From positions 930,001 to 962,000 of the forward strand of contig NC_008698.1 of NCBI RefSeq assembly GCF_000015225.1: a stretch of 32,000 nucleotides of DNA, in the 5' to 3' direction. The translations under genes were made by a program, and so were the position numbers. This DNA is from Thermofilum pendens Hrk 5. Its GTDB lineage: Archaea; Thermoproteota; Thermoprotei; Thermofilales; Thermofilaceae. This document shows positions 4,401 through 20,680 of this stretch, piece by piece; within the stretch, counting starts at the first letter, position 1; each line of letters begins with the position of its first letter. Below the pieces are notes generated by a model. That model was not told the DNA's origin. It ran no database searches and saw only the letters and a list, made by a program, of their open reading frames with translations.

Positions 4401-4551
4401 GCTCAAGATTCTTAAGGCAATTCAAGCGTTAACGCCTAACGCAGAGGTTACATTCGAGTTTATGGAGCCGCAGAAAGTGGACGAAGATATGGAGAAGAGG
4501 TTTAGGGGCCTTAAGGTTGTCTTTAGCGTAGAGCGGGAGGAGGAATGCTGA
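1492..4551 (+). CDS. large P-loop ATPase, DUF499/BrxC-like (~1019 aa)
   Basis: Track ORF 1480-4551 (GTG). The in-frame ATG at 1492 overlaps the methylase TGA as ATGA. Walker A 'PALLGAGKSHF' (GAGKS nt 1729-1743) and Walker B-like 'VVLIFDETQHF'. Size and position next to a DUF1156-type methylase fit the DUF499 family. Assignment rests on motif and context, not an HMM. Confidence 0.7.
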   Translation: MSLVNLLAEGKVSPAVDIYEVYKSLFKGEKPEKIYEPYCDPRLFFQLTFVTDGFKQYLGDFLSKLASGESEVYVMPALLGAGKSHFLAFVLHILRLYRDCRGAGECVEKALEELGVKLKVPSLEKVPEVLVFHGEHNVDLKPLDFSSKDTLKASLKPPVVLIFDETQHFEAKIRDFPLLMQMLAEAVEERRGVFLFVSFSLFSGERPDLAAPKSLDAVRRVHYVTVSLDVTRNIVEVFRRWAGLSGARSVELAGLKGIVTDERLREFENRLRGSYPFNPYLLDAVLQLADESLVEKTRVQLTRGLLRILASAYVNRRGELVIFADLPEPKEVVIAGDVFAGQLNVILRLYEDDARKVSGSIAALSVLRHILLATFFARLLPHRRMYPTEEELILGSYDPARVKPLDVKMFLEDAARQGLHIEKVNGRYMYWFIGGIEEKVRDAMYRFGDDDGLEVATDEVASLARERAGPFSSVVIAGVGGTKALGKVKVVSSRDEWEKELKDQDKAILAIDLLNFGVPVKRNNLIVVRRYDEGEPPQTTLELLKRVGEGPRTVREAVVDLGRLVKGVDEVYANLIDYFPELLEEEMEDILRRELEQLIRGRLENLKSRAKAYLRESVGLWLRRGVVGFKDVEKRGFDELVGELVKDKRDRLRGVVKEIFTGDLINWDSFKKVGDLWSLFLNNESFPAIPASFEEFLEALREYCKGCNCLFEEDGEVKWLGENGCVMPELDKDVGVAPFMYKKRVTEWAVEGFLKQYGSSAKRRVYIVYRKPSGPEARATPEELLSKQNEWIYLEGGRLEIEEVQKGISVSVDGVETVSVERPRGATILVEVESSYDLKSIEYTLNGVKKVFDVKGKRHAFNVKVPGEPGRYVLKVRAVFADDTFDERDVAIIVRGKCKRKITVLSVSVGEEIVGLKADTAQDGEILLRYFRDRGVPFKATVSTEYSYGDEEMIVNVRKKVNSPDDADKLLKILKAIQALTPNAEVTFEFMEPQKVDEDMEKRFRGLKVVFSVEREEEC

Positions 4552-4943
4552 TCCGAGCAATTAGAGGCGGGAGAGCTGTTAGGGTAAAGTGCGCAGAAGG
4601 TAGGTTCGAAGTTGGAGTGCCTTTCGAGGAGCTCTTCAGTTTTCTTGGCAGAATTTACCCCTGGGAGCTTGAAAGGCACATCGAGGTGGGAGATGGGGTG
4701 GCTGAGTTTAGGGAACGAATACCGTTTGAGAGGGCTCTCGCATACCTTTTGGCGCGTAGGGGCCGGCTTTCGCAGAAAGATGCCGAGCTAGTCGCCGCTG
4801 GTATTAGGCAACATGAGTTGTCGGCTATTGTGGACTCCTTTCTCTATAGGATGTGGCTCTGCAGGGTAGACGGTCGTAGCTGTAAGGAAGTGGTTGACGC
4901 TTTTTCCAAGATAGTTGCCGTGTACCGCAAGGTGCTCCCGTGA
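4545..4943 (+). CDS. small hypothetical protein (132 aa) between ATPase and helicase
   Basis: ATG 4545 overlaps the upstream stop (ATGCTGA, 4545-4551) and follows GGGAGGAGGA. Its TGA (4941-4943) overlaps the helicase start. No motif recognised. It sits where I recall DUF3780-like proteins in related operons (unverified). Confidence 0.6.
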   Translation: MLIRAIRGGRAVRVKCAEGRFEVGVPFEELFSFLGRIYPWELERHIEVGDGVAEFRERIPFERALAYLLARRGRLSQKDAELVAAGIRQHELSAIVDSFLYRMWLCRVDGRSCKEVVDAFSKIVAVYRKVLP

Positions 4944-7384
4944 TGGTATCCCTGATTGAGATACTGAGGTCTGCCGGCAAGGATCTCTACAAGCACCAGC
5001 TCGACTTTGTGTCTGATGCTCTGTGGTTTGACGAGCCCCGTATTCTCTTGGCTGACGACGTAGGGCTGGGTAAAACAATCCAGGCTCTCCTCTACATTAA
5101 GGCTCTCCTCGAGCTGGGGAGGGTGAACCATGTTCTAGTAATAGTGCCTCGTGCTGTCGTGGAGCAGTGGGCATCTGAGCTGGAGATGTTCGAGATACCA
5201 TTCTACATCGTGGAGTCGCCTGACTTCCCGCTGGGACACAGGGTCTACCTAGTCACCCTGGATAGAGCTAAGGTGGACAGCTACATGGAGGCTTTGGACA
5301 AGATAAACTGGGACTTGGTAGTTGTTGATGAGGCTCACAAGCTGAGGCTAGAGACGCTCAGGTCTAAGGTGGCTATTCTGTGTAGAAGGGCGAGGGGATG
5401 TCTTTTACTCACTGCTACTCCGCATACGGGCGACGAGAGTAGCTTCAAGTTCCTGATAGGACTCGCGAACAGCTATGTTGTACGGCGTGAAAAGAAGGAT
5501 GTGGAGGAGTATGAGGGGCGCAAGATATTCCCGTCTTTGGGGTACTGGATAGTGCAAGTGAAAGCAACGAAAGAGGAGAGTGACGCGCTTCATAAAGTGC
5601 TTAAATTCCTGGAAAACGATCAGATAGAGCAGATTGTGCGCGTAGTAGTGGAGAAGAGGGCGATGTCGAGCCCAACAGCGTTTTTCAAGACACTCGGAAA
5701 GGTTGTAGGAGGGTATTGCAGCGAAGAGTTACTGGAAGAGGGGGAGCTCGATGCCTGCATTGGTAACGTTGCCGGTGTAAAGAAGCTTGAGGAGCTCGCA
5801 AAGAAATATGCTAGCGCTGCCGACAGGAAGTTGGATGCTCTCGAAAAGTTGCTGAAGGATCACCTCAAGGGGAGAAAAGTACTTGTCTTCACAGAATATG
5901 CGACTACCGCCGAGTACCTATTTGAGAAGCTTGTTGAGAAGCTTGAGGGTTGTAAGATCGTAGATAGTGGGGAGGGCTACGCAAAGGCTGACTGTAGCGA
6001 GTTTGGAGTTATGTATGTTACAGCTAAGGCTAGGGACAGGATTGACGTAAGCAGGGAAGGCGCGCTCCTAGCGTCCGCGTATCCTACAGCTGTACTTATA
6101 TCCACGGACATAATGTCCGAGGGCGTAAACCTCCAGGCTTTCGATGTTGTTGTTAACTACGAGGTTGTATGGAGCCCGACAAAGCATGTGCAAAGGATAG
6201 GTAGAATCTGGAGGTTTGGACAGAAGGCAGAGAAAATACTAGTTATCGACATGGTTCTAAAGACTACTCTCTCGCAGGACGAATACAGCAACTATTTGAC
6301 TTTGTTGGAGAAATTGTACGAGATATCTCTCGCTGCCCTACCACCCCAGAGCTACGGCGAGTTCGAGATCTATGAGGTCGACCAAGAGCTCAGGAAGATA
6401 GTGGAGATAGGGTCTTCGGCTTATCTAGGAGAGGAGGAGGTCTACGAGGCTTTAAGGTCTGGTAGGCTGGAGGACCTGCGGAGCAGGATAAAGCGGATTC
6501 TCAAAGCTAAAGAGAACATGAGGTGGAAGAGCAGGAATGAGGTGGATGAGGGTTTACGCGTAAAGCTTGGCTACCCACCGGAGAAGAAGCCGGAGCCCGG
6601 GGGAGGATACTATGTTGCCAACGTTACTTTTGAGCGTAACGGAGTGAAGCTTTACTCCGAGCGTATACTCCTAAGGTTGCCAACACCGCTGAGTAGAAGT
6701 AGGTCGGTACAGGAGGGGGTCTTCAGAGAGCTGGAAGTTCCCTGGGATGCAGTAGTAGAGGATACTGGGTCGCTCAAGGAAGACGAGAGAGAGGAGGTTA
6801 ATCGTATGGTGTGGATCGAGGTATGGCATCCACTGCAGCAGTACCTTTCAAGAAACAACCTTCCCGAAGGTGGTATTAACGTAGAAGTAAAACGTGCAAG
6901 GGTAGAGTCTATAGGGGTTGCAGAGCTAATACCCGTTACCTTGAGCTTCGAGGAGCTTGTCGAGAGAGAAGTGAGGTACAGTAGGAACAGGGAGCGCACA
7001 GAAAGGGCTGCTGCTAGATGCATCAGGAGTTTACTCGAAAATCTGGGCTATACAATTGTGGAGGAATATGCGAGTATTCCTCGACCCTTCGACATGGTGG
7101 TGAAAAAGGACGGCATTCTTTACACGGTGGAAGTCAAAGGTAAATGGGTTGGGAAGCGTGATGAACCGTTATCCTTCACTGCGAATGAGATTGACTGGGC
7201 TTCGAGGTTCCCAGATAGGCACATTGTGTGCATAGCATACGTGGACAGAGATTACTGTGAAGACGTGGAGTGCTACTACTTCAATGAATTTCAGAAGAAA
7301 TGGGTTCTGGAAACTGTGAGAGGAATAGAGTACAAGTATAACGCTAGGAAAAAAAAGGGAGCCGACAAAACCGAACCTCAATAG
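4943..7384 (+). CDS. SNF2-family helicase with C-terminal PD-(D/E)xK (DUF3883-like) nuclease domain
   Basis: Motif I 'DDVGLGKTIQAL' (GLGKT nt 5063-5077), motif II 'VVVDEAHKL' (DEAH nt 5327-5338), 'LLLTATPHTGDE', 'ISTDIMSEGVNLQ', 'VQRIGRIWRFGQ'. C-terminus: 'PFDMVVKKDGILYTVEVKGK...LSFTANEIDWA' (D nt 7091-7093, EVK nt 7130-7138). Start is ATG 4943 (TGATG overlap) or GTG 4940. Confidence 0.85.
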   Translation: MVSLIEILRSAGKDLYKHQLDFVSDALWFDEPRILLADDVGLGKTIQALLYIKALLELGRVNHVLVIVPRAVVEQWASELEMFEIPFYIVESPDFPLGHRVYLVTLDRAKVDSYMEALDKINWDLVVVDEAHKLRLETLRSKVAILCRRARGCLLLTATPHTGDESSFKFLIGLANSYVVRREKKDVEEYEGRKIFPSLGYWIVQVKATKEESDALHKVLKFLENDQIEQIVRVVVEKRAMSSPTAFFKTLGKVVGGYCSEELLEEGELDACIGNVAGVKKLEELAKKYASAADRKLDALEKLLKDHLKGRKVLVFTEYATTAEYLFEKLVEKLEGCKIVDSGEGYAKADCSEFGVMYVTAKARDRIDVSREGALLASAYPTAVLISTDIMSEGVNLQAFDVVVNYEVVWSPTKHVQRIGRIWRFGQKAEKILVIDMVLKTTLSQDEYSNYLTLLEKLYEISLAALPPQSYGEFEIYEVDQELRKIVEIGSSAYLGEEEVYEALRSGRLEDLRSRIKRILKAKENMRWKSRNEVDEGLRVKLGYPPEKKPEPGGGYYVANVTFERNGVKLYSERILLRLPTPLSRSRSVQEGVFRELEVPWDAVVEDTGSLKEDEREEVNRMVWIEVWHPLQQYLSRNNLPEGGINVEVKRARVESIGVAELIPVTLSFEELVEREVRYSRNRERTERAAARCIRSLLENLGYTIVEEYASIPRPFDMVVKKDGILYTVEVKGKWVGKRDEPLSFTANEIDWASRFPDRHIVCIAYVDRDYCEDVECYYFNEFQKKWVLETVRGIEYKYNARKKKGADKTEPQ

Positions 7385-7443
7385 CTGGGAGGAAAAGGAG
7401 AGTATCGAAGAATTCATGCTTTCTTGTCTCAATGGAGCTGACG

Positions 7444-7450
7444 TATAATA
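7444..7450 (+). promoter_or_regulatory. TATA-like box (TATAATA) upstream of M48 protease gene
   Basis: A/T box 19-25 nt upstream of the GTG at 7469, spacing compatible with a leaderless archaeal transcript. Confidence 0.3.
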
Positions 7451-7468
7451 GAACCTAATTCATTTTCG

Positions 7469-8407
7469 GTGTACTCATCGAGGGTTTTTTATGGGACTAC
7501 ACCTTGGGTAATGTTGAGCATGGAGATGCTTGTGCTCGCAACGTCTGTGATGATGGTGTTTGCGACTACCTTTGCATATTTCGCGGCGATGCATGGAGGG
7601 TTTAAGCGCCTTGAGCATGTCTTAGTGTTTCGTATCCTTATTGTGTTGGGGCTTGTTGCGGCGTTACTTGTTTTCGTGCCTCACATGGTGTGGTACTGTG
7701 CGTTGGAAGCTTCCCGTATGCCAGTTGCCGCCGCTATAATCGCTCTTGTGTACTTCTCCTCTTCTCCTCTGATGGAGATTATAAGGCTACGCCGCGCGAA
7801 GAAGTTGGAGAAGCGGTATGTTGAGATCGGAGGGCGTGGTTACGAGTACTGGGTTGTGGATTCTGATGTGCTGAACGCATGCCGAAAGGGCAGGGAGATC
7901 TGTGTCACAAGGAAGCTTGCAGAAGTGTTCGAAGTTGACGAGCTGAAAGTCGTCCTCCTTCATGAGGAGGGGCATGATGGCATATTCGATAAGGTCGTGG
8001 TTGTAGGGAGGATTATTCTCCTTTCTTCTCTAATTATTCTTATCACGGATGCTTTTATGCTGGACGCGGAGATGTTTTTCTCTTCCCTCTCTGCGTACTT
8101 ATTGGCCATTCCTGCTGCTACCCTTGCTAGCTGGGTCAACGAGCATGTAGCTGATCTTAACGCGGCAAAGATGTTCCCTCCTGAGCTAGTTGTGAGAACC
8201 TTTGTGAAGTTTTGGGCATGCGCCGTATTACGCGATTTGTGCACCAGGGAGGTTGTGAATGTGGTTGTCTTTAAGAACATTCAGGAACCTACGTTCCGAA
8301 AAGTTTTGTGGGAGGTGGCTAGATCGATGTTGGATAGTTTGAGGGGAAATCTCTCTATACACCCTCCACCGAGGTTCAGAATATACGCTGTTCTTGTACG
8401 TACATGA
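7469..8407 (+). CDS. integral-membrane zinc metalloprotease, M48 (HtpX/Ste24-like) family
   Basis: Several hydrophobic segments. 'LKVVLLHEEGHD' holds the HExxH motif (nt 7961-7975). Downstream 'NEHVADLNAAK' matches the E-x-x-A-D third-ligand motif of M48 peptidases. GTG start at 7469; alternative ATG at 7511. Confidence 0.7.
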   Translation: MYSSRVFYGTTPWVMLSMEMLVLATSVMMVFATTFAYFAAMHGGFKRLEHVLVFRILIVLGLVAALLVFVPHMVWYCALEASRMPVAAAIIALVYFSSSPLMEIIRLRRAKKLEKRYVEIGGRGYEYWVVDSDVLNACRKGREICVTRKLAEVFEVDELKVVLLHEEGHDGIFDKVVVVGRIILLSSLIILITDAFMLDAEMFFSSLSAYLLAIPAATLASWVNEHVADLNAAKMFPPELVVRTFVKFWACAVLRDLCTREVVNVVVFKNIQEPTFRKVLWEVARSMLDSLRGNLSIHPPPRFRIYAVLVRT

Positions 8408-8590
8408 AAGGTTTGAAATTTTTCTTGCAGAGAAATTACTAGACGCGGGCTTAATTTTCTAAGAACAGCGACATCGCTGAAGGAGCTCGAGTTTCAAGCT
8501 AGGCCTGCCTCGGTGCTTCCTGTTCACTCTTCTTACCCGAGGCTCGTGGCGGAGGTTGCGCAGAAGGCGAGTGTGAGGGTTTTCAGGCAG

Positions 8591-8780
8591 GGGGTTTAGC
8601 CGCTGTGTGGGGGTGGTTGTTTTGCGGCGAGGTTTTGGGCTGGAATGTGTGGAGAAGCTTTCGGCGGTGTTAGGGGGATTTTGGCTGTGGGTTGTGTGTT
8701 CGAGGATTTTGGGGCGTAGGGCTGGGTTGCGGAGGTTGTTGAATTTTTGGGTTGTTGTGGCTTGTTGGCGTGTTGTTTTC
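8591..8780. repeat. strand-asymmetric G+T-rich tract with reiterated RRTTTTGG(G/C) motifs
   Basis: Hand count over 190 nt: G~86, T~72, C~17, A~15 (~83% G+T on the + strand). 'gaggttttgggctgg' (8629-8643), 'ggattttggctgtgg' (8677-8690), 'gaggattttggggcg' (8702-8716), 'gaatttttgggttg' (8741-8754). 'gcggaggttg' recurs at 8549-8558 and 8729-8738. Lies directly upstream of the ParA-like gene. Confidence 0.6.
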
Positions 8781-8786
8781 AAAAAG

Positions 8787-8796
8787 TTTTAAGTAT
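8787..8796 (+). promoter_or_regulatory. TATA-like box (TTTTAAGTAT) upstream of ParA-like gene
   Basis: A/T box 28-37 nt upstream of ATG 8824; GAGG lies 4 nt before the ATG. Confidence 0.3.
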
Positions 8797-8823
8797 TGTT
8801 TTGAGTTTTAATTTTTGAGGCTG

Positions 8824-9723
8824 ATGAAGGCGGTTACTTTCCTCAGCGTGAAGGGTGGCGTTGGGAAGACTACGCTCGCTGTTAACACCGCGGCTATGCT
8901 TGCCGATAGAGTTGGGGGTAGCGAGAAGGTTCTCGTCGTGGACTTGGATGCCCAGGCGAGCGCCACCGTGTATATTCTTGGGCATAAAAAGCAGAGAGGC
9001 TTTGAGGAAAGCAACCACACGGTCTACGGGTTGCTGAGTGGGGGTGTAGAGGCGCGTGACTGTGTGGTTAACGTCTCTGAGCATACGGATAAGTGGAGTT
9101 CTAGGCTTTACCTTGTCCCGGGGGACTCGAGGGTCACTGAGCTTGAGAGGAGGATAGTTGCGGAGAGTGCGGCGGGGGGTTACGGTTGGCTGTATATCGT
9201 TAGAAGGGCTCTCGAGAAGCTATCCGGGGAGGGCTTCAGCTATGTTTTCATAGATCCTCCGGCTACGCTGGGTGTTCTTTCTGAGGCGGCGCTTGCGGCT
9301 TCGAGGTACTTTATACTCCCCATAGTTCCCGACGACTTTGGTCGTACGTCGTTCAGGCTCTTCGCGAGCAGCTTCTTCAGCGGAGTTGCTATGAAGATCA
9401 GGACTGAGCTGGGCACGTTGCCTCTCTGTGGAGGCATAGTCTTCAATAAAGTGAAGTCAAATACTGCTATGGAGAAAATAGCCAATAGTATAGTGGAGGA
9501 GGTGCACAAGAGTAAGTTGTACGGCAAGTACCCGATTCCTTTGTATAAGACAAGGTTACATGAATATATAGCCTATACAAAATCTCTTGAAGAGCATGTC
9601 CCGTTGTGGAATATTAAAGAAAAGAAAAAACATGAGAATGCTATAAAAGAGTTCGAAGAATACTTCGATGAGTTCTACGAGTACGTTGTAAGGGATAAAG
9701 CGGCAGCAGGCGGGCAGGTTTGA
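8824..9723 (+). CDS. ParA/MinD-family P-loop ATPase (module 1)
   Basis: Deviant Walker A 'SVKGGVGKTTLAVN' (nt 8851-8874), 'VLVVDLDAQASAT', 'YVFIDPPATLG'. Track ORF starts at TTG 8815; the in-frame ATG at 8824 is more plausible. Confidence 0.8.
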   Translation: MKAVTFLSVKGGVGKTTLAVNTAAMLADRVGGSEKVLVVDLDAQASATVYILGHKKQRGFEESNHTVYGLLSGGVEARDCVVNVSEHTDKWSSRLYLVPGDSRVTELERRIVAESAAGGYGWLYIVRRALEKLSGEGFSYVFIDPPATLGVLSEAALAASRYFILPIVPDDFGRTSFRLFASSFFSGVAMKIRTELGTLPLCGGIVFNKVKSNTAMEKIANSIVEEVHKSKLYGKYPIPLYKTRLHEYIAYTKSLEEHVPLWNIKEKKKHENAIKEFEEYFDEFYEYVVRDKAAAGGQV

Positions 9724-10163
9724 GAGATTTCGCGAATGAAGGCGAGGTTTACCGTTTTCTCAGGTGGAAGCTTAGGGAACTTTGGGGGGCGAGGGTTGAG
9801 GAGCGCTATGGCCTTGGTAGGTTGTCGCCGGACGTGGATCTTCTCGTCGTGGCTGGTGGCGGGGTTTTCGGGCTGGAGGTGAAGTACTTTCAGGATAGGC
9901 CTCTTAGGGCTTACGAGGGGCTGGGGGAGGCGCTTGCGCTTTTGCTTTACTGTTTCGATGGGGTTTACTTGGTTCACGTGTTTGATTCTTCGCTTCGCGG
10001 GGTTTACGGAGAGGTTGTGGAGAGGGCTCTTAGGCTTGTGGATTTGACGCCTTTGGGCTACGTCGTCGTGGTGGGCCGCGGCGATCCCGAGGTGTTGCGT
10101 GTGCCTCGGGGTAACCCGTTCAAGCTTAGGGGTGAGTGCGAGGCGGTGGGACAGGACGCGTAG
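9720..10163 (+). CDS. small PD-(D/E)xK-fold (Hjc-like) protein, partner of ParA-like ATPase
   Basis: TTG start overlaps the ParA stop (TTGA). 'SPDVDLLVVAGGGVFGLEVKY' gives a D...E-x-K core (EVK nt 9876-9884) after an N-terminal helix bearing Glu. Followed by 'YEGLGEALAL', shared with the 128-aa protein at 20294-20680. The fold call is inferred from motif spacing only. Confidence 0.55.
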   Translation: MRDFANEGEVYRFLRWKLRELWGARVEERYGLGRLSPDVDLLVVAGGGVFGLEVKYFQDRPLRAYEGLGEALALLLYCFDGVYLVHVFDSSLRGVYGEVVERALRLVDLTPLGYVVVVGRGDPEVLRVPRGNPFKLRGECEAVGQDA

Positions 10164-10206
10164 GCTTTTCTTCCAGGCGCTTTTCCAGGCTTTCTTCGTG
10201 CCTGGG

Positions 10207-10223
10207 GTTCTCGTGGCGAGAAC
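10207..10223. terminator. 7-bp perfect hairpin (GTTCTCG-TGG-CGAGAAC) between convergent genes
   Basis: Inverted repeat read directly from the sequence, flanked upstream by pyrimidine/T-rich runs (cttttcttcc, cttttcc, ctttcttc). Function not established. Confidence 0.25.
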
Positions 10224-10253
10224 GCTGGTACGCGTGTGGCGGCGCTTGGAGGG

Positions 10254-11264
10254 CTAGGTGTTCGTGTATACTTCTATTCCGAGTTGTTTTGCGGCTTTTA
10301 GTGCTTCTTCTTCTATGAAGGGTGTTACGAGGACTAGTCTTGGCTTTGTGCCGGTTTTCTTCTCGTATAGGCGTCCGAGCCTCCAGAGCTTTGCTATGTC
10401 TCCGCTGGAGGCGCTGGGTTTTACTTCGATGAGTACGTGTACCTTGTCTTTTATCAGTATGTCTGCTTCGACCCTGGAGGGGTATCCGAGGACTTCGCCG
10501 TCTTCGTCGTAGTAGACCCACCTGAGGACTTCGCCTGCGCCTAGTATTTCCTCGACGACTCCCCTCATGGCTTCTCTGAAAGCGGCTTCCGACTCGATGC
10601 CCCACCTGGCGCCCAGCGCTATGAGGCGTCTCTCGAAGGAGTCCATCTTTCTCGCGAGGATCCCTTGCTCCTCTCTGAGAGACTTCACTTCTTTCCACAG
10701 CTTTCCTTGCTCTTCTCTCAGCGCCTTAACCTCTTCCCATAGTTTCTCCTGTCCCTCTCTAAGAGCTTTCACTTCCTCCCACAGCTTTTCCTGGTTCTCC
10801 CTCAGAGCTTTTACCTCCTCCCACAGCTTCCTTACCTCTTCCCAGAGCTTCTCCTGTCCCTCTCTCAGTGCCTTGACCTCCTCCCAGAGCCTCTGCTGGC
10901 CTTCCCACAACTTCCCCTGGTCCTCTCTCAGCGCTCTAACCTCCTCCCATAGCTTTTCCTGGTTTTCTCTGAGAGCCTTAACTTCCTCCCACAGCCTCCT
11001 CTGATCCTCTCTCAGCGCCTTAACTTCTTCCCATAGCTTTCCCTGCCCCTCTCTGAGGGACTTCACTTCTTCCCACAGTTTTTCCTGGTTTCTCCACAGT
11101 TGCTCCTGTCCCTCCCTCAGCGCCCTTATCTCGTTCAGCGTTGCGTCCATCTTCTCGAGCAAATCCCTGAATCCCAGCAAACCGGCTAAAGCGTACCTAA
11201 GCTCCCTATCCTCCTCCAAAGCCTTAACCAACCGCTCCCACTCCCCCCTACCCAGCGCCGCCAC
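10254..11264 (-). CDS. coiled-coil repeat protein with C-terminal PD-(D/E)xK domain (DUF3782-like architecture)
   Basis: 336-aa ORF, GTG start. The middle ~160 aa are heptad-based 'LWEEVKALREGQEK' repeats. C-terminus 'RVEADILIKDKVHVLIEVKPS' has the D...E-x-K motif (EVK nt 10419-10427). This architecture recalls archaeal proteins often mis-annotated as chordopoxvirus fusion protein. Confidence 0.7.
   Translation of the reverse strand: MAALGRGEWERLVKALEEDRELRYALAGLLGFRDLLEKMDATLNEIRALREGQEQLWRNQEKLWEEVKSLREGQGKLWEEVKALREDQRRLWEEVKALRENQEKLWEEVRALREDQGKLWEGQQRLWEEVKALREGQEKLWEEVRKLWEEVKALRENQEKLWEEVKALREGQEKLWEEVKALREEQGKLWKEVKSLREEQGILARKMDSFERRLIALGARWGIESEAAFREAMRGVVEEILGAGEVLRWVYYDEDGEVLGYPSRVEADILIKDKVHVLIEVKPSASSGDIAKLWRLGRLYEKKTGTKPRLVLVTPFIEEEALKAAKQLGIEVYTNT
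10659..11132 (-). repeat. in-frame tandem 42-bp (14-aa) repeat array
   Basis: Nine full 14-aa units (LWEEVK[A/S]LRE[GDNE]Q[EGR][KR]), three 7-aa half units (LWRNQEK, LWEGQQR, LWEEVRK) and a degenerate first unit. Visible in the DNA as reiterated ctcttcccanagctt...ctctctcagngcctt. Confidence 0.85.
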
Positions 11265-11343
11265 CAGCCAAACCCGAGAAAAACTAACCGGAAGTATTTA
11301 AAATGGTTTTCTGGAAGGGGGTTGGCTCGGCGTGTTTTGGGTG

Positions 11344-11688
11344 TTAGTCGTGTTTTTCGGGCTCGATGACTACGGCTGTGCCTGTGGCTGTTACGACTAT
11401 GAAGCCTTCGAGTATTTCCGAGGTTTCGAAGTTTACTCCTATCACGGCGTTGGCGCCTAGCTTGGAGGCTTCGGCTACCATGTCCTGTAGTGCCTCGTCT
11501 CTCGCTTTCTTCAACTCCTCTATGTAAGCTTCGCCCCGCCCGCCTACGAGTGCTTCGACGCTGGCCGCGAGTCTTCCCAGCACTCCCCTCGTCCTCACTC
11601 TCATCCCGGTGACTATTCCTAGAACTTTGACTACCCTGTACCCCGGCACCGAGTGTGTAGTCGAGATTATCACGTGTTCTGCTTCCAC
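11344..11688 (-). CDS. YbjQ/UPF0145 (DUF74) family protein
   Basis: 114 aa: 'ISTTHSVPGYRVVKVLGIVTG...RGEAYIEELKKARDEALQDMVAEASKLGANAVIGVNFE' is the typical YbjQ-family pattern. Confidence 0.8.
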   Translation of the reverse strand: MEAEHVIISTTHSVPGYRVVKVLGIVTGMRVRTRGVLGRLAASVEALVGGRGEAYIEELKKARDEALQDMVAEASKLGANAVIGVNFETSEILEGFIVVTATGTAVVIEPEKHD

Positions 11689-11712
11689 GAGGACCGCTAT
11701 AAAGTCGTCGCT

Positions 11713-12048
11713 TTAGCCTACCTTGATCATCGCTTTGCCGGCCCACCTCGCTAGCTCCTCTCTGCTCGCTACGTGTATCTCTACGGGCGCGTCTACTGGG
11801 AGCGAGTACTTCTCGACTGCCCTGTCGACTATGTCCGCCGGGAGGTACTTCCTGTCCTCGTTGCCCGCCTTCTCCAGCACTACGAGGATGTCTATGTCGC
11901 TAAGCACGGTGGCCCTGCCCTCGGCGACGCTCCCGACAACGTATACCTCGGCGTCCGGCCTCAGGTCCTTAGCCGCCTTGGCGACGGCCTCGGCGTACTC
12001 GCGCCACCTCCTCAAGTGCGCGAAGTGGTACTTAACCCAGCTTGACAT
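11713..12048 (-). CDS. minimal nucleotidyltransferase (MNT), HEPN-partner type
   Basis: 'VYVVGSVAEGRATVLSDIDILVV' carries the GS...DxD pol-beta NTase motif. ATG 12048 overlaps the upstream HEPN gene by 17 nt (track start 12063). Confidence 0.8.
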   Translation of the reverse strand: MSSWVKYHFAHLRRWREYAEAVAKAAKDLRPDAEVYVVGSVAEGRATVLSDIDILVVLEKAGNEDRKYLPADIVDRAVEKYSLPVDAPVEIHVASREELARWAGKAMIKVG

Positions 12049-12448
12049 TCTCGGCGACCTCATCGAGTAGCTTGATCAAGTCTTTAACGGTGGCCGCGAG
12101 CCTTTCGACGTCCTTCGCCGAGTACTCGGCTTCGCCGTACCTGCTAGCGGTGTACGCTTCTTCGAGCAGTACGAGCTCCCTCCTCCTGCCGTCGACGAAG
12201 CCCAGGATCCTCCCCGCGGCCTCGCCGAAGCCGTAGGACTCGAGCTCCCTGGCGAGGAGCCCCAGTAGCTCCCTCACTCCGTGCCCGCGAGTCTCCCTGC
12301 CTACGAGCTCGAGTAGCGTAGCCTTCACGTAGAGCTGGGCCGCCTGCTCCAGGAAGAACGCCGCGAGATCCGCGTTCTTTGCGCTTAGGGCTTCGTCGAG
12401 GAAGTCCAGCGCTCTTCTCTTAAGCCTGGCTACGAGCTCTCCGCTCAT
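12032..12448 (-). CDS. HEPN domain protein
   Basis: 138 aa, all-helical character. 'RETRGH' fits the Rx4-6H HEPN motif. Directly upstream of and overlapping an MNT gene. TATA-like 'ttattctatagcc' (minus strand) ~25 nt upstream. Confidence 0.75.
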   Translation of the reverse strand: MSGELVARLKRRALDFLDEALSAKNADLAAFFLEQAAQLYVKATLLELVGRETRGHGVRELLGLLARELESYGFGEAAGRILGFVDGRRRELVLLEEAYTASRYGEAEYSAKDVERLAATVKDLIKLLDEVAENVKLG

Positions 12449-12564
12449 TCACTGTTAGCGGGGTGAAGGCTATAGAATAACGTTTCGCAGAGCCTCGAAG
12501 AGCTCCCAGGTGGAAGCGGCTTCTTCGGCTTCCAGGCCCACGGCGTGTTTCCGCCGGCGCCGCG

Positions 12565-13056
12565 CTACTTCTCGCGCGTTCCGAGCGCCTTCACGAATAT
12601 CGCCGGTAGGACCTCCCTGGCGAGGAGGACGGGTACTATGAACACGTTGCGCCCCTCTACGGGCTCGAAGCCGAGCCTCCTCTCGAATTCCCTCCTGGTA
12701 GCCTCCTTCCTCAACCCGTTCGAGAGCCTCCGCGGCGCGTTCGTTACTACGACCACGGTGAACGCTACGTCCCCGTACCTCGACCTGTACTCCTCTACGA
12801 GCCCCTCTAGCCTGGAGCAGAGCGCCCCGAAGTACCTTGCGGCGCCCCCGGTGTCGTGGCCTACTTCTATCTCGACGAACATCACCGCGTCTACCTTGCC
12901 CCCAGAGCTGTGCTCGATAACCACGTCTGGCCCCCTGGCCTGCCCCGGGGAGGCTTTAACGCTCCACCCGAACACCTCGGCGAGTATCTTCACGTACTCG
13001 ACCGTGAAGTCGTGCAGAGTCTCCCTCGACATACCCTGAGCCTGGAGTTCCTTCAA
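12565..13056 (-). CDS. hypothetical protein (weak restriction-endonuclease-like motif)
   Basis: 163-aa ORF with high GC3. 'GPDVVIEHSSGGKVDAVMFVEIEVGHD' loosely resembles a D...ExE/K nuclease core, but it is not diagnostic. Start is TTG 13056 or ATG 13032. Confidence 0.5.
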   Translation of the reverse strand: MKELQAQGMSRETLHDFTVEYVKILAEVFGWSVKASPGQARGPDVVIEHSSGGKVDAVMFVEIEVGHDTGGAARYFGALCSRLEGLVEEYRSRYGDVAFTVVVVTNAPRRLSNGLRKEATRREFERRLGFEPVEGRNVFIVPVLLAREVLPAIFVKALGTREK

Positions 13057-13092
13057 GGGTAAAAAGGCTTACCGTTTTCCCGGGCGCAATGC

Positions 13093-13102
13093 TTAAATAT
13101 TT
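13093..13102. promoter_or_regulatory. near-palindromic A/T box (TTAAATATTT) in divergent intergenic region
   Basis: The only A/T-rich element in the 77-bp spacer between 13056 (-) and 13134 (+). It sits 32-41 nt from ATG 13134; GGTGAG lies 6 nt upstream of that ATG. Confidence 0.35.
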
Positions 13103-13133
13103 CGTGAATTATCACGTAAATCGGTGAGACGGG

Positions 13134-13385
13134 ATGGGTTGGGGTTGGTGGGGTGGGTGGCCTGGTAGGGGTCCTTTCAGCTACCTGCCGCCTTGGCAGA
13201 GGCCCGGCTGGGTGTTCGGTAGGGGTGCTTGCTGGTGGCTGCTAGGCGGACCCTGGACGCCGTGGACATACTACCCATGGACACCTTACTACTCCGCACC
13301 ATACTACTATGCATACTACCCAACGCCCTACTACCCGGCGCCGTACGCGTACTGGCAGGCTAGGTACTGGTGGCCCTGGTGGTGA
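13134..13385 (+). CDS. Trp/Tyr/Pro/Gly-rich micro-protein (83 aa)
   Basis: ATG preceded by GGTGAG and a TATA-like box. First gene of a co-directional cluster. 16 W + 15 Y in 83 aa, with no D/E/K/H/I/N. Its coding status is not proven. Confidence 0.5.
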   Translation: MGWGWWGGWPGRGPFSYLPPWQRPGWVFGRGACWWLLGGPWTPWTYYPWTPYYSAPYYYAYYPTPYYPAPYAYWQARYWWPWW

Positions 13386-13390
13386 GCTGG

Positions 13391-13606
13391 ATGTACTGGT
13401 ACTACTACTTCCCGGGTGGCTGGTACCCGCCGTACTGGTACCCGGTGCCTTACCCTGACCCAGTGTCCCTGATGTACGCTTGGTCCTACATGTGGTCCTA
13501 CTGGCTCTCAACGATATACTACATCGAGATGTACAAGGCGATGCTGGAGGCTTGGAGGAAGATGGTCGAGGCAACGTTCAAGGCTCCCGTAGTACCCACG
13601 GGGTAG
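13391..13606 (+). CDS. Tyr/Trp/Pro-rich micro-protein with C-terminal helix (71 aa)
   Basis: ATG 13391 follows GGTGGTGA (which includes the upstream stop) by 5 nt; track start is GTG 13370. 14 Y + 7 W. Ends in an ordinary amphipathic stretch 'IEMYKAMLEAWRKMVEATFK'. Confidence 0.45.
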   Translation: MYWYYYFPGGWYPPYWYPVPYPDPVSLMYAWSYMWSYWLSTIYYIEMYKAMLEAWRKMVEATFKAPVVPTG

Positions 13607-13621
13607 CGCGGGTGGAGCTTT

Positions 13622-14056
13622 TTGGGCTACGGGTACGGTAGGCGAGGGTGGGGAGGCTTTGAGGGCGGCGCCTCCTGGGCTTCGGCGCAGATGCCGCCGC
13701 TACCCCCTCCTCCCCCTGGGACGCTAAGGGTCGCCGCGGGCACGGATACGGCGGACGGGCTCAACGCCCCCGTGTCGGCGAGGTTTGCCAGGACGCCCTT
13801 CCTGACCATTGTGGACATCGTGGACGGGAGGGCTACGAGGGTCGAGCCCATGCCTAACGCCTTCGCATCAGGCGCCGGCGGCGTCGGCGCTGCTGTCGGG
13901 CAGTGGCTCCTGAGCTCCGGTGTCAGCGTGGTCGTAGCCCCGAGCCTGGGCCCGAACATCTCGATGATCTTGGGGCAGGCGGGCGTCAGGGTCGAGGTCG
14001 TGCCTCCCGGCGTCCCCCTGGGCGAGGCGTTGAAGAGGCTGGGCCTGCTGAGGTGA
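13622..14056 (+). CDS. NifX/NifB-C-terminal-like (FeMo-cofactor-binding fold, COG1433-like) protein
   Basis: 'APVSARFARTPFLTIVDIVDG...GAGGVGAAVGQWLLSSGVSVVVAPSLGPNISMILGQAGVRV' matches the NifX-family pattern. TTG start gives a Gly/aromatic N-terminal tail 'GYGYGRRGWGGFEGG'. Alternative ATG at 13691. Confidence 0.7.
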   Translation: MGYGYGRRGWGGFEGGASWASAQMPPLPPPPPGTLRVAAGTDTADGLNAPVSARFARTPFLTIVDIVDGRATRVEPMPNAFASGAGGVGAAVGQWLLSSGVSVVVAPSLGPNISMILGQAGVRVEVVPPGVPLGEALKRLGLLR

Positions 14057-14928
14057 TTTTTTTGGAGGTAGTCGTGGCGAGCGGGAAGGGGGGTACTGGT
14101 AAGACTTTTTTCTCTTCTAACCTCGCCGTCTACCTGCGGGACAGGGGAGGCTGCGTAGCGGCGGACGCCGACGTGGAGGCGCCGGACTTCCTGCTCGCGC
14201 TCGGCGGGGCCCGGAGGGTTCTCTGGAGGGAGGAGTTCCGGGGGGTTAGGCGCCCCGTGGTGGACTACTCTGCCTGCGTCAAGTGCTGGGCGTGCGTGGA
14301 TGCCTGCCAGTTCAACGCTATCCGGAGGGGGCCGGAGGGACCCGTCGTGGACTACGATAGGTGCGAGGGCCTCGGGACGTGCGCGTTCGTCTGCCCAGCC
14401 GGGGCTATAGGCTTCGCGGAGGAGAGGGCCGGCGAGATCTACGCCGCCGAGACGGAGCACGGTGTCACCGTGGTTACCGGGGACCTCGAGCTGGGGGGAG
14501 GCGCTAGCGGTAGGCTGGTCTACGAGCTCAAGGAGAGGGCCCGCAGGCTCTCGTCCGGGGCGGCGAGGTACGTCGTCGTCGACGCGGCGCCGGGGATCGG
14601 GTGCCCCGTGGTGTCGAGCGTCGCTGGGGCCGACTTGCTGGTCGTAGTGGTGGAGCCTACTCCTCAGTCCGCGAAGGGCGCCGCGCGGCTCCTCGAAGTC
14701 GCGGGGGCTCTGCGCGTAAAGGCGGTAGCCGTTGTCAACAAGTACGACTTGAACCCGAGCTACGCGGCGAGGCTCGAAGGAGAGCTCGGCGTGGATGTCG
14801 CCGGGCGAATACCGTACGACGAGGCGGTGGCGCGCTCCTACGCCGAGATGAAGCCCCTCATAGTTGCGTACCCCTCCTCCAAGGCGGCGCGGGCGCTCCT
14901 AGACGTCTTCTCATCGCTGGGGGTGTGA
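14053..14928 (+). CDS. MinD/ParA-type P-loop ATPase with inserted ferredoxin domain (COG1149-like)
   Basis: GTG 14053 overlaps the upstream TGA (GTGA). The track ORF's earlier start (13903) would overlap the NifX-like gene out of frame. 'ASGKGGTGKTF' Walker A, 'CVKCWACVDAC' and 'CEGLGTCAFVCP' cluster motifs, 'VVVDAAPGIGCP'. Confidence 0.8.
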   Translation: MIFLEVVVASGKGGTGKTFFSSNLAVYLRDRGGCVAADADVEAPDFLLALGGARRVLWREEFRGVRRPVVDYSACVKCWACVDACQFNAIRRGPEGPVVDYDRCEGLGTCAFVCPAGAIGFAEERAGEIYAAETEHGVTVVTGDLELGGGASGRLVYELKERARRLSSGAARYVVVDAAPGIGCPVVSSVAGADLLVVVVEPTPQSAKGAARLLEVAGALRVKAVAVVNKYDLNPSYAARLEGELGVDVAGRIPYDEAVARSYAEMKPLIVAYPSSKAARALLDVFSSLGV

Positions 14929-14931
14929 ACT

Positions 14932-15810
14932 GTGGTGAAGGTAGTCGCGGTTACGGGCGGTAAGGGAGGGACGGGGAAGACGGTGGTGGCAGCCAGCCTG
15001 GCGAGGCTCCTGAGCGATGCCGGCGCGAGAACCCTCCTCGTCGACCTCGACGTGGAGAACCCCTGCTCCTACACCCTCCTGGGCGCCGAGCTCGGCTCAG
15101 CAGAGGAGGTAGCGCTTTTCAGCCCCGTGATCGTCGAGGAGAAGTGCACGTTGTGCGGAGCCTGCGCCTCCGCCTGCCCAGCTCACGCCCTCGTGTTAAT
15201 CCCGGGGAAGCGCCTCCTGTTCCTGGAGCCCCTATGCGAGTCCTGCGCCACGTGCCTCTACGCGTGCCCCGCCGGCGCGGTTGCGAGGGGGAGGAAGGTC
15301 GTCGGCTGGGTGAAGAAGGGGCGCGCGGGGGGCGTGGACCTCGTGGTGGGGGAGCTGAAGCCCGGTAGCAGGCAGCACCACGAGGTGATGGAGAGGACGC
15401 TGGACTACGCGTCGAGCACTTGGAACGGCTACGACGTAGCGGTCCTGGACCTACCGCCTGGATCCGGGAAGGGTATCCGCTCCGCGTTGAAGCGCGCCGA
15501 CCTAGCGCTCCTAGTCGCCGAGCCGACGCGGCTAAGCCTCGCCGACACTCGGAGGGTGCACAGCCTCGCCAGGGAGGCGGGCGTGAGAGAGGTCCTCGTC
15601 CTCAACAAGTACGGGCTTCCGGGCGGCGTGGACTCGGAGATAGAGGCCTTCGCAGCCAGCGAGGGGCTCGCGCTAGTGAAGGTCAGGTACGACTCGGCGC
15701 TCGCGGAGGCCTACGCGAGGGGAGAGCTCGTAGTCGGGAGCAAAGCCCCCTCGGCCGCCGACCTCGCGGAGCTGGCGAAAACGGTGGCGCAGCTCCTCGG
15801 GCTTCGGTAG
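14932..15810 (+). CDS. MinD/ParA-type P-loop ATPase with inserted 2x[4Fe-4S] ferredoxin domain (COG1149-like)
   Basis: 'VTGGKGGTGKTV' Walker A, 'CTLCGACASACP' and 'CESCATCLYACP', 'AVLDLPPGSG'. GTG start 3 nt after the upstream stop. Confidence 0.85.
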   Translation: MVKVVAVTGGKGGTGKTVVAASLARLLSDAGARTLLVDLDVENPCSYTLLGAELGSAEEVALFSPVIVEEKCTLCGACASACPAHALVLIPGKRLLFLEPLCESCATCLYACPAGAVARGRKVVGWVKKGRAGGVDLVVGELKPGSRQHHEVMERTLDYASSTWNGYDVAVLDLPPGSGKGIRSALKRADLALLVAEPTRLSLADTRRVHSLAREAGVREVLVLNKYGLPGGVDSEIEAFAASEGLALVKVRYDSALAEAYARGELVVGSKAPSAADLAELAKTVAQLLGLR

Positions 15811-15976
15811 GGTGCCCGCCTCTCTAAGTTTACGGCCTTTTAGCTCTTTAAGCGTCGGCGGTCCCTGCGGTGGGGATGCTTTCAATTCTATAGCGATGTA
15901 TCGCTGAAAGTTTCCCGTAAATATGGGGCAAATGTTTAAGAAGATTGCTAGGTATTGATTAATACGGTGATGCAAC

Positions 15977-16066
15977 GTGTCCTTCCTGAAGAAGCTCTTC
16001 AAGAAGGAGAAGAAGGAGGAGAAGAAAGAAGAAAAGAAGGAGGAGAAGCCTCAGGAGAAAAAGTGA
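15977..16066 (+). CDS. candidate 29-aa Lys/Glu-rich micro-ORF (MSFLKKLFKKEKKEEKKEEKKEEKPQEKK)
   Basis: Below the ORF-track size cut-off. GTG start 6 nt after GGTGA (15966-15970), TATA-like boxes 15-45 nt upstream, oligo-T tract right after the stop. The polypurine composition alone could generate such an ORF. Confidence 0.25.
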   Translation: MSFLKKLFKKEKKEEKKEEKKEEKPQEKK

Positions 16067-16078
16067 ACCAGTAGCAGG

Positions 16079-16096: not shown

Positions 16097-16162
16097 ACGC
16101 GCGAGTAGCTTTTTCCTCTTGCGAAAGCTTTTAAGAAGAGGCTCACGGGTGGATAGTGGGAG

Positions 16163-18853: not shown

Positions 18854-19396
18854 ATGGGTGAACATCACATGTGGAACGTTGAGAACGCTATTAAGAGGAA
18901 TGCGAACGTGTACCACGTCTACATAGCCTGCATGATCGCGAAGTTCAGGGAGCTCGGGCTGGTGAACTACGGCGTGATAAAGGGCGCCGCGGAGGCTACC
19001 GGTAGGTGCACAGCCGACTACTTCCTGGCGCACGGGCTGAAGCCCTCGTCCGTCGAGGATGCAATCGTCGCCCTCAACGAGATCACGGGCTTCACGGACG
19101 AAGTCAAAGTCGACTACAGGGACGGCGTCCTCGAGGTGCGGATGCACAGGGATAGCTGTAGGATATGCCCGAGGATGGTGGGAGGGCTCGAGCTACCCGG
19201 CGCTGCTTGCCCGAACGTCGGCTACATAAAGGGCTTCGTCGAGGGCCTCGGGCTGGCGAAGCTGGAGGACTTCGCTAGAGAGAAGGGGGAGGAGCCCGTA
19301 ACCAAGGATGGAGAGTACTGCGTGATAAGGTACGTCGTGAAGGAGGCTAGCGCCCCCGTAAAGGAGGAGAAGGCTGTCGCCGCCCGGAGAGTCTAG
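18854..19396 (+). CDS. hypothetical protein with V4R-like Cys motif
   Basis: 180-aa ORF. 'DSCRICPRMVGGLELPGAACPNVGYIKGFVEGLG' resembles the conserved Cys/Gly region of V4R small-molecule-binding domains. Assignment is tentative. Confidence 0.5.
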   Translation: MGEHHMWNVENAIKRNANVYHVYIACMIAKFRELGLVNYGVIKGAAEATGRCTADYFLAHGLKPSSVEDAIVALNEITGFTDEVKVDYRDGVLEVRMHRDSCRICPRMVGGLELPGAACPNVGYIKGFVEGLGLAKLEDFAREKGEEPVTKDGEYCVIRYVVKEASAPVKEEKAVAARRV

Positions 19397-20307
19397 CCCT
19401 CAGCCCAGTCCGCCAGTTGCTTAAGGACCGGGGAGAGCTCGGCTTTTTCCTTCTTTTTCTTCAGCTTTCCTATTACGTCGAGCCTAGCTATGTCGGAGTG
19501 CGCTGGAACGTAGTAGTCTGCAACCCTGCCTACAAGGGTTGATAGGCTGTCTATACCCTTGAGCACCTCCTGGCTCGGCTTAGCTTTTCCCTCCTCCTTT
19601 CCCTCGGGGTTCCTGATACCCCTCTCTGCGAGCGCGGAGGCTTCCCGGGTACCTGTGTCTACCAGGTTGTAGACGGCGAGTATCTTCGAGTAGAACGCAC
19701 CGGTGCTTCCTCCAAGCCTGCCGGAGTGGTGCTGTGCGAGGTACCTTATCATCCTCAGCGTCCTCCTGAAGTCGACTATGCTTGGTCGTAGCACGACGGC
19801 GTACTTGTCGGAGGAGTAGAGGCTCAGCACAGTGTACCGCTCGTCGAAGAACGGGGCGCTGTCTACCACTACGTAGCGGAAGGAGGAGTAGACGCCTAGC
19901 TCTTCGAGGAGCCTCCGGAAGCTTTCCCCGGGGTTCCCGGGGCGCCACAGCTCCTCCACGACGCGCGGGAAGCTCTCGCCGGGTACGAGTACCTTGAAGT
20001 AGGAGTCCTTGAACGACGCCTCCCAGATGTACCTCTCGGGCTCGACCCTTCTACCCCTTTCGAAGAGGTCTTCGTAGGCGGCGCTCAGAGTCTTCCCCTC
20101 GTCCTCGGCCTTCGCGTAGTTTTCGTCGCCTAGCAGTAGGAGACTCAGCCCAGCGGTGGGGTCTAGGTCTACGAGTAGAATCTCCCTGGCGGGCACCCCC
20201 TTGACGTGCTGGAGGTACGCCGCGAAGAGCACTGAGAGCGTTGTCTTGCCGACTCCGCCGGAAGCCGATATGAATGCGAGCGTCCTCGACTGTTTAGCCG
20301 TACTCAT
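19393..20307 (-). CDS. ParA/MinD-family P-loop ATPase (module 2)
   Basis: 'AFISASGGVGKTTLSV' Walker A, 'ILLVDLDPTAGLS', 'YVVVDSAPFF'. ATG 20307 follows GAGGGGTGGA (track start GTG 20319). Overlaps the upstream 128-aa gene by 14 nt. Confidence 0.8.
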   Translation of the reverse strand: MSTAKQSRTLAFISASGGVGKTTLSVLFAAYLQHVKGVPAREILLVDLDPTAGLSLLLLGDENYAKAEDEGKTLSAAYEDLFERGRRVEPERYIWEASFKDSYFKVLVPGESFPRVVEELWRPGNPGESFRRLLEELGVYSSFRYVVVDSAPFFDERYTVLSLYSSDKYAVVLRPSIVDFRRTLRMIRYLAQHHSGRLGGSTGAFYSKILAVYNLVDTGTREASALAERGIRNPEGKEEGKAKPSQEVLKGIDSLSTLVGRVADYYVPAHSDIARLDVIGKLKKKKEKAELSPVLKQLADWAEG

Positions 20308-20680
20308 AGAGCGGTCCACCCCTCACGTACACTGCCACCTTGACGCCCGCAGCCGCGCCCATCTTCTTCAGGTTCTCCAGGTAGAGCGGGTCGGCGCTCC
20401 AGACGACGTGTAGTAGCAGGGGCTTCTCGACCCCGCCGATCACCTTCAAGGCTAGCGCCTGCCCGAAGCCTTCATAGAACCTCTTTGGGTAAAGCTTCAC
20501 CTCGGCGGCTTCCAGCCCGTCGTACAGGTCGGCTTCCACCCCGTTCAGCACCGCCTCGGACTCTGCGCCGAGGTAGGATGCGAGCACCCTGCAGAAAGAC
20601 TTCTCTCCCTCCACTCTCTTTAACAATTCTTCAAGAAAGCCGCTCTCGGCGGCATCTCTTATTTTTTCGAGGAGCGGCAT
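20294..20680 (-). CDS. small PD-(D/E)xK-like protein, paralog of 9720-10163
   Basis: This is the 3' 387 nt of track ORF 20294-21670; the remainder is antisense to surE. It starts at the internal ATG (cat at 20678-20680). 'VEADLYDGLEAAEVKLY' (EVK nt 20495-20503) and 'YEGFGQALAL' (nt 20447-20476) align with 'PDVDLL...GLEVKYF...YEGLGEALAL' of the 147-aa protein. Confidence 0.6.
   Translation of the reverse strand: MPLLEKIRDAAESGFLEELLKRVEGEKSFCRVLASYLGAESEAVLNGVEADLYDGLEAAEVKLYPKRFYEGFGQALALKVIGGVEKPLLLHVVWSADPLYLENLKKMGAAAGVKVAVYVRGGPLYEYG

Follow-up and report, generated by a model that had tools for sequence, protein, structure and literature searches.

ATPases of the ParA family serve prokaryotes as standard switches for positioning, and the partners known for them are adaptors that bind DNA or cargo, including ParB, ribbon-helix-helix (RHH) proteins, SegB, McdB, MinE and others. 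In the 32,000-nucleotide stretch of the Thermofilum pendens Hrk 5 chromosome analysed here (NC_008698.1, positions 930,001 to 962,000; hereafter the window), the gene of a ParA/Soj-type ATPase of 299 amino acids (ParA1; 8824..9723, plus strand) runs into the gene of a 147-residue protein (small1; 9720..10163, plus strand) with a predicted PD-(D/E)xK fold. The two genes, termed pair 1, meet in the sequence gTTTGAg, in which the TTG start codon of small1 at 9720 overlaps the TGA stop codon of parA1 at 9721-9723. Thus, the overlapping 147-residue open reading frame (ORF) with its TTGA junction is present as described in the original prediction, which was made from the sequence alone. The small1 start codon is backed by homologues that begin at the equivalent position with ATG, GTG or TTG, while the start of parA1 is placed at ATG 8824 rather than at TTG 8815, which is also open in frame, because the database protein has 299 amino acids, fitting 8824. 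The 5′ side of parA1 is formed by a non-coding stretch (8408..8823, no strand assigned), characterized by its sequence, its composition and repeat and k-mer scans, with TATA-like A/T boxes at about 8787-8816, so that a promoter role of this region appears plausible from the sequence. Within it, the tract 8600-8790 consists to 81% of G+T (A 19, C 17, G 82, T 73) and contains the most C-depleted 150-nucleotide stretch of the window; it is not kept 5′ of parA in the other loci, and the ORFs found in it (61 amino acids on the plus strand, 107 on the minus strand) are driven by composition.

ParA1 has the hallmarks of the ParA/MinD deviant-Walker-A superfamily, namely the signature lysine and the aspartates of Walker A′ and Walker B. 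Its N-terminal sequence, MKAVTFLSVKGGVGKTT, contains the deviant Walker A motif KGGVGKTT including the signature lysine, and is accompanied by DLDAQ as Walker A′ and FIDPPA as Walker B. The Pfam models AAA_31 (86.8 bits, cut-off 27; 2e-24) and CbiA (48.7 bits, cut-off 25.4; 9e-13) both score above their gathering thresholds, which bears out the earlier call of a ParA-like ATPase, and the PHROG “ParA-like partition protein” matches at 4e-35. The score against the NCBIfam ParA equivalog NF041546, 61.3 bits, lies under the curated cut-off of 180. The nearest solved structures in the PDB are Borrelia PF-32, Soj, McdA and pNOB8 ParA, the last with a match limited to the N-terminus (E 3.5e-7). ParA1 and its relatives form a tight clade with identities of 42-61% and E-values from 1e-112 to 1e-70, followed by a cliff to about 1e-15, the level of ordinary ParAs. 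Named members come from Thermofilum adornatum, Infirmifilum and Thermofilum metagenome-assembled genomes (MAGs), and the related loci are labelled Thermofilales or Thermofilaceae. In 21 members of the clade K10, GGVGKTT, D40/D42 and D144 are all invariant, together with the clade-specific residues W91, W122, C202, H258, F284 and Y287. As judged from these motifs and matches, the assignment of ParA1 as a complete Soj-like ParA is firmly supported. The predicted isoelectric point (pI) of ParA1 is 8.3, and the ParA1 proteins are basic across the loci (8.3-9.2).

The small1 protein contains the elements noted in the original prediction, i.e. a helix glutamate, PDVDLLVV and GLEVKY, and its homologues share an N-terminal xDFxxExE motif. 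A word-indexed search with small1 yielded six homologous clusters with 42-54% identity, and in an exhaustive hidden Markov model search of 1.84 billion cluster representatives 134 proteins passed E ≤ 1e-3, including about ten close relatives of 140-160 amino acids; overall, the homologues are 33-54% identical to small1. An AlphaFold2 (AF2) model built on a seven-sequence alignment reached a predicted local distance difference test score (pLDDT) of 86 and a predicted template modelling score (pTM) of 0.83. The model comprises helices at residues 7-22, 68-74 and 96-107 and strands at residues 25-27, 41-45, 48-57, 81-88, 113-118 and 124-127, and the order of its core, alpha-beta-beta-beta-alpha-beta, is that of the restriction-endonuclease-like core. 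When the model is compared with the PDB by Foldseek, the matches are almost only PD-(D/E)xK proteins (best E 9e-4; template modelling (TM) scores 0.37-0.52), among them SfsA, Archaeoglobus fulgidus Hjc, XisH, PaqCI, McrC and NucS/EndoMS. In BFVD the top match is an MmcB-like repair protein (E 5.5e-6, TM-score 0.61), with nucleases, Mrr and Holliday junction resolvases among the further matches. The fold proposed for the small ORF was therefore recovered by modelling.

The putative catalytic residues fit this fold: helix 1 opens with E7, D40 immediately precedes strand 2, and strand 3 carries E53-x-K55. None of the four varies among the 14 closest sequences, which answers the question raised earlier of whether the active site is conserved or degraded, and in an alignment of 38 sequences from the wider family D40, E53 and K55 each reach at least 90% conservation. 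Of the active-site set originally put forward (D38, E53 and K55), E53 and K55 were retained, while D38 was replaced by D40, since conservation of the latter is better over the family as a whole; E7 was identified as the helix glutamate, and E9 is invariant solely among the closest homologues. Both the core fold and the catalytic motif (Glu, Asp, (D/E)xK) that define the PD-(D/E)xK superfamily are thus found, so that the assignment of small1 as a PD-(D/E)xK protein with a complete E-D-ExK site is, on sequence and model, firmly supported, and nuclease activity is predicted. The predicted pI of small1 is 5.3, and the pair-1 partners range from 5.3 to 8.0; their N-terminus enters helix 1 directly with DFxxExE, and a basic flexible tail is absent. 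Searches of Pfam, NCBIfam, PADLOC, PHROGs and PDB sequences gave only a sub-threshold match to NERD (PF08378; gathering threshold 22.1 bits), with 13.7 bits (E 0.09) for small1 and 17.1 bits for its homologue P0011. The nuclease-fold signature seen in the original prediction stands, but its likeness to Hjc-type resolvases is weak: small1 has no Hjc match (PF01870) at E ≤ 0.1, its homologue P0008 reaches 19.6 bits, below the cut-off of 21.1, and the small1 model superimposes on A. fulgidus Hjc with TM-scores of 0.35-0.43 and a root-mean-square deviation of 8-13 Å. Membership in the Hjc family was therefore rejected.

The two genes are inherited together. ATPase and small gene are both present in 11 of the 11 readable related loci (L001-L004, L006, L012-L014 and L017-L019), a count that excludes L005, where the small gene is present and the upstream gene was not examined. 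In every readable locus the small PD-(D/E)xK gene lies directly 3′ of the ATPase gene. The loci include two complete genomes, CP007493 (1.75 Mb) and CP009961 (1.61 Mb), and several MAGs of Thermofilales or Thermofilaceae, so that the adjacency extends to 10 loci beyond T. pendens, from two genera and several MAGs. ATPase and partner genes overlap by 4-35 nucleotides in eight of nine loci; the junctions are overlaps of four nucleotides (ATGA, GTGA or TTGA), eight nucleotides or, in L017, 35 nucleotides, while L018 has a gap of 11 nucleotides. Furthermore, the pairwise identities of ATPases and partners correlate over nine loci (r = 0.89), and the ratio of nonsynonymous to synonymous substitution rates (dN/dS) for L004 against L019 is 0.15 for the ATPase gene and 0.20 for the small gene. 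Both values indicate purifying selection, and the second, together with the retained catalytic residues, confirms coding conservation of the small ORF. The flanks of pair 1 differ among genomes and comprise GH53, GH1, CbiMNQO and sulfur-carrier genes as well as toxin-antitoxin (TA) modules, while the G+C content (GC) of the pair tracks that of the host, from 0.45 to 0.60. That pair 1 is a co-inherited two-gene module is thus firmly supported; it is restricted to Thermofilaceae. No published description of a ParA paired with a PD-(D/E)xK protein was found, in line with the earlier remark that this is not a characterized combination, and nucleases receive no mention in a 2022 review of the ParA family.

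A second pair of this kind lies further along the window, on the minus strand. It consists of small2 (20294..20680), a diverged paralogue of small1 with 128 amino acids, and ParA2 (19393..20307), a ParA-like ATPase of 304 amino acids that matches Pfam AAA_31 and CbiA. The order is reversed relative to pair 1, with small2 upstream of ParA2 and an overlap of 14 nucleotides. Against the family profile A2, small2 scores a probability of 87.6% in hhalign (E 3.5e-6), and against small1 it gives E 2e-4 in blastp; its motifs are EAD, AAEVKLY and RFYEGFGQALAL, the family motif being AAEVKLYPKRFYEGFGQALAL...LLLHV. Independent gene calls in other assemblies place the same pair of 128 and 304 amino acids between surE and an MJ0207-family gene. 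By contrast, a 458-amino-acid ORF at 20294-21670 (minus strand) was rejected as a gene, as only its last 128 codons, which are small2, are real; the first about 330 codons run antisense to surE (20774-21556, plus strand), and most of its length is an artefact that stems from the high GC content. The Walker A motif of ParA2 is SASGGVGKTT, in which a serine takes the place of the signature lysine, so that ParA2 falls outside the deviant Walker A definition. An AF2 model of small2 on the family alignment was unusable (pLDDT 45), and a metagenome scan with ParA2 alone found nothing. The metagenomic contig L020 has the pair-2 arrangement, with a small protein that is 34% identical and an ATPase that is 35% identical (E 1e-47) and shares SASGGVGKT with ParA2. 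The existence of a paralogous second ATPase and small-gene module is, at the level of sequence, firmly supported, and this anciently diverged second association of both families is strong evidence, independent of pair 1, for a functional link between them.

The small proteins of the two pairs belong to a wider family that consists mostly of proteins of about 200 amino acids with the signature QPDIDLL...EVKYF...YYEG(I/L)(D/G)EALALL...G.D...L.H.FD...PIGY...NP(L/F). Its members are all annotated as hypothetical and nearly all metagenomic, one being labelled Freyarchaeota, and none matches a model of Pfam, NCBIfam, PADLOC or PHROGs; the small protein defines a family that is uncovered by these four profile libraries. 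Pattern scans could not be based on the broad family alignments A2 and A3 because of their diversity. A linkage of the ~200-residue members to ParA was considered and rejected, as their loci (L007-L011) are without ParA and vary in context, with an unknown gene, a weakly PLD-like gene and cas1 as neighbours. Likewise, a 299-amino-acid gene 5′ of the solo homologue P0203 was tested as a hidden ParA and is not one. One member of the wider family, P0169, carries an excisionase/MerR-type HTH_17 domain fused to its N-terminus (Pfam 1.4e-16), which suggests site-specific DNA targeting in that branch.

Signatures of partition and of mobile elements were searched for around pair 1. The search for centromere repeats and shared k-mers covered the surroundings of the operon in eight loci: in the window, centromere-like iterated repeats, direct or inverted, were found neither upstream nor downstream of the operon, and in the seven other loci no k-mer around it was shared or repeated at least three times. 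The helix-turn-helix (as in ParB) or RHH fold expected of the partner in a ParABS-like system is not found in small1, whose fold is PD-(D/E)xK. Searches of plasmids and phages by tblastn and pattern scans of viral contigs recovered no copy of the small protein or of the wider ~200-residue family, and the matches of ParA1 to plasmid ParAs are all below 32% identity.

Pair 1 marks the right edge of the low-GC part of the window, which has 48-54% GC at 1-10000 and 60-68% at 12000-32000. The low-GC island (1-8407, plus strand) carries an Hma-like methylase/ATPase/helicase defence system made up of a DUF1156-type methylase fragment (98-1495), a DUF499 ATPase (1480-4551), a 132-amino-acid gene (4545-4943) and an SNF2 helicase with a C-terminal NOV_C/PDDEXK domain (4940-7384), followed by an M48-like membrane peptidase (7469-8407). 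The methylase fragment matches only the C-terminal half of its models, so that the gene may be split or cut short by the edge of the window. Convergent with small1 is the gene of a coiled-coil protein with DUF3782 and a C-terminal PDDEXK_10 domain (10254-11264, minus strand); it contains about ten degenerate tandem repeats of 21/42 nucleotides (10626-11163) that encode LWEEVKALRExQEK heptads, and its product matches the PADLOC candidate C3a181 strongly (6.6e-38). Further on follow a YbjQ-family gene (11344-11688, minus strand) and two TA-type pairs of nucleotidyltransferase (MNT) and HEPN genes (11713-12448, minus strand; 16163-17042, plus strand). A tandem of two further MinD/ParA-superfamily ATPases, which contain inserted 4Fe-4S ferredoxin domains (13903-15810, plus strand), brings the ParA/MinD-superfamily genes of the window to four; both are unrelated to the PD-(D/E)xK pairs. 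The high-GC part also holds ordinary repair genes, namely those of an EndoIII/HhH-GPD glycosylase (18090-18851, minus strand) and an Lhr-type large helicase (28256-31096, minus strand).

In T. adornatum (L012, CP007493) pair 1 is situated between an intron-containing tRNA gene (7681-7793), which lies 200 bp 5′ of the pair and is detected by ARAGORN in intron mode only, and an array of clustered regularly interspaced short palindromic repeats (CRISPR; 9860-12470) that begins 500 bp 3′ of the pair and has about 40 repeats (CCTTCAATTCTTTCTGAGTTGCATC). TA modules, cas1 or csx1 occur within 8 kb of the pair in L013, L017, L019 and L006. Genes of cas1 or csx1 (CARF-HEPN) adjoin family members, or lie within 8 kb of them, in L010/L011 (4564-5931), L013 (16550-16918), L019 (1-689) and L020 (2280-3542), and thus also neighbour a solo ~200-residue member and the pair-2 homologue. 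The small-protein family may therefore be loosely associated with CRISPR or defence islands, a pattern recognized post hoc.

The layout of pair 1 is that of type Ib par loci, in which the ATPase gene comes first, the gene of a small partner second, and both are translationally coupled. As in ParF-ParG of TP228 and delta-omega of pSM19035, a small Soj-like ATPase and a short coupled partner form an autonomous two-gene cassette. In contrast to these loci, the pair-1 partner has the PD-(D/E)xK fold with intact catalytic residues in place of the RHH fold and lacks a basic N-terminal tail, centromere repeats were not found near the operon, and the pair was not found on plasmids. Like SegAB of Sulfolobus and ParA-ParB-AspA of pNOB8, pair 1 has an archaeal ParA-family ATPase and, downstream of its gene, the gene of a partner specific to the lineage. 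SegB belongs to the RHH proteins and stimulates the ATPase through its N-terminal tail (PMC8682754). The partner in pair 1 is not an RHH protein, and the PDB matches of ParA1 at E ≤ 1e-5 include no SegA, which sets pair 1 apart from SegAB.

Two-gene defence systems of ATPase and nuclease include Septu (PtuAB), Gabija (GajAB) and PARIS (AriAB), whose ATPases are ABC/SMC-like or OLD-type and not of the ParA/MinD type. Pair 1 resembles them in that an NTPase subunit is combined with a small putative nuclease effector in variable neighbourhoods with defence genes, but it has no PADLOC model, and its inheritance within one family looks vertical. With MmcB-like proteins, XisH, Hjc and the C-terminal domain of NucS, small1 shares the core fold and the E...D...ExK motif (TM-scores of 0.61 for the MmcB-like protein in BFVD, 0.50 for XisH and 0.48 for NucS), while, unlike these nucleases, it is without a significant sequence match in Pfam, NCBIfam or the PDB and has a family-specific signature. 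A ParA-family ATPase that serves a DNA-cutting machine rather than segregation is known from Agrobacterium, where the ParA-like VirC1 works with the VirD relaxosome and has the RHH protein VirC2 as its direct partner. The nuclease in that case is a HUH relaxase and is not encoded as a two-gene cassette; in pair 1, by contrast, the partner is itself a PD-(D/E)xK protein within the cassette.

With some reservation, and at somewhat short of an even chance, we favour the reading that pair 1 is an ATP-gated, ParA-tethered nuclease module with a role in genome conflict or maintenance. In such a module, ParA1 and small1 would form a complex, to which the ParA1 dimer would contribute the DNA contact and the ATP switch and small1 the Mg-dependent cleavage of DNA, resulting in an ATP-gated nuclease tethered to the nucleoid. 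Since ParA1 is basic, it probably binds DNA non-specifically as an ATP dimer. The translational coupling, the recurrence and co-divergence of the two genes under purifying selection, the second pair, the conserved catalytic residues of both proteins, the combination of a basic ATPase with an acidic to neutral partner, and the variable, defence-rich surroundings all argue for this arrangement, and the lack of shared repeats near the operon, of copies in the plasmids, phages and viral contigs searched and of a helix-turn-helix or RHH fold in the partner speaks against classical partition. In our view, a function in genome conflict or maintenance, i.e. defence against, or addiction to, foreign DNA, is more likely than centromere-based partition. 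Several observations weigh against it. The inheritance looks vertical, the pair is present in both complete genomes of relatives, and its GC follows that of the host, all of which is unusual for defence and fits housekeeping. PADLOC 2.0 yields no match for the small protein and its relatives, and the only match of the ATPase, to PDC-M28B (E 7e-7), is local, covering 40 residues at Walker A. In the small protein of L020 the lysine of ExK is a glutamate, which suggests that catalysis is dispensable in at least that branch. Finally, the neighbours in L018 and in much of L017 are mostly metabolic, and because these genomes abound in TA and CRISPR loci, the neighbourhood offers a weak, post hoc hint only.

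Some of the same observations are accommodated by a ParA-driven partition or positioning system, in which the PD-(D/E)xK protein would act as an adaptor, binding to a site on the chromosome or to a cargo and stimulating the ATPase, as a Thermofilaceae counterpart of ParB, ParG or SegB. The ATPase is a complete Soj-like ParA by sequence, nearest to partition ATPases, and the operon is laid out as in type Ib par loci; the pair occurs singly throughout the lineage, its members diverge in step and its GC follows the host, which suggests vertical housekeeping inheritance; and pair 2 lies among housekeeping genes, with an L020 homologue whose loss of the ExK lysine fits a non-catalytic adaptor. A binding-only adaptor, however, has no need of the catalytic tetrad that is invariant in the pair-1 partners, and these are acidic to neutral proteins without the basic flexible N-terminal tail of ParG or SegB. 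Neither iterated nor conserved repeats occur near the operon in the eight loci, the pair was not found in plasmids, phages or viral contigs, and the flanking genes are not conserved. We consider this explanation a serious competitor, less likely than the nuclease module. Less probable again, and in our view improbable, is a housekeeping function in repair or recombination, with the small protein as a structure-specific nuclease of the Hjc, MmcB or NucS type that is recruited to the nucleoid or regulated by a ParA-type ATPase. The conserved catalytic residues, the vertical look of the inheritance, the EndoIII-type glycosylase gene next to pair 2 and the best structural matches, which include the MmcB-like protein (TM-score 0.61), Hjc, NucS/EndoMS and SfsA, are consistent with it, but the protein is a member of neither Hjc nor NERD by Pfam score, the TM-scores to Hjc are low (0.35-0.43), and pair 1 is unlinked to repair genes. 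Moreover, the pair is confined to one family, while core repair factors are usually distributed more broadly, and no ParA-coupled repair nuclease was found in the literature. A meaningless adjacency, be it a chance overlap of unrelated genes or a small ORF that is not real, is effectively refuted by the co-divergence (r = 0.89) and the dN/dS of the small gene (0.20), and the 11 loci with varied flanks, the confident AF2 model and the second paralogous pair leave it a negligible chance.

In the most far-reaching reading, active PD-(D/E)xK nucleases may be a previously unrecognized class of partner for ParA/Soj-type ATPases, with which they would form an ATP- and nucleoid-gated machine for DNA cleavage; this machine would have resided in Thermofilaceae long enough to split into pairs 1 and 2. 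It could serve archaeal immunity or addiction as a new system based on a ParA switch, or it could maintain the chromosome by cutting DNA in the course of segregation; we regard this wider proposal as possible, at somewhat less than an even chance. The pair occurs only in a single family of hyperthermophiles, organisms for which we know of no routine genetic tools, and the function assigned to it is a predicted one. The novelty lies in the class of partner that accompanies the ParA ATPase in this two-gene module. If it acts in defence, it would add a ParA-based type to the poorly known immune repertoire of archaea, and if it acts in segregation, it would provide a first handle on chromosome partition in Thermofilaceae. 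A conserved, co-evolving nuclease partner with an intact active site would, if true, mean that ParA control extends from placement on the nucleoid to the cutting of DNA.

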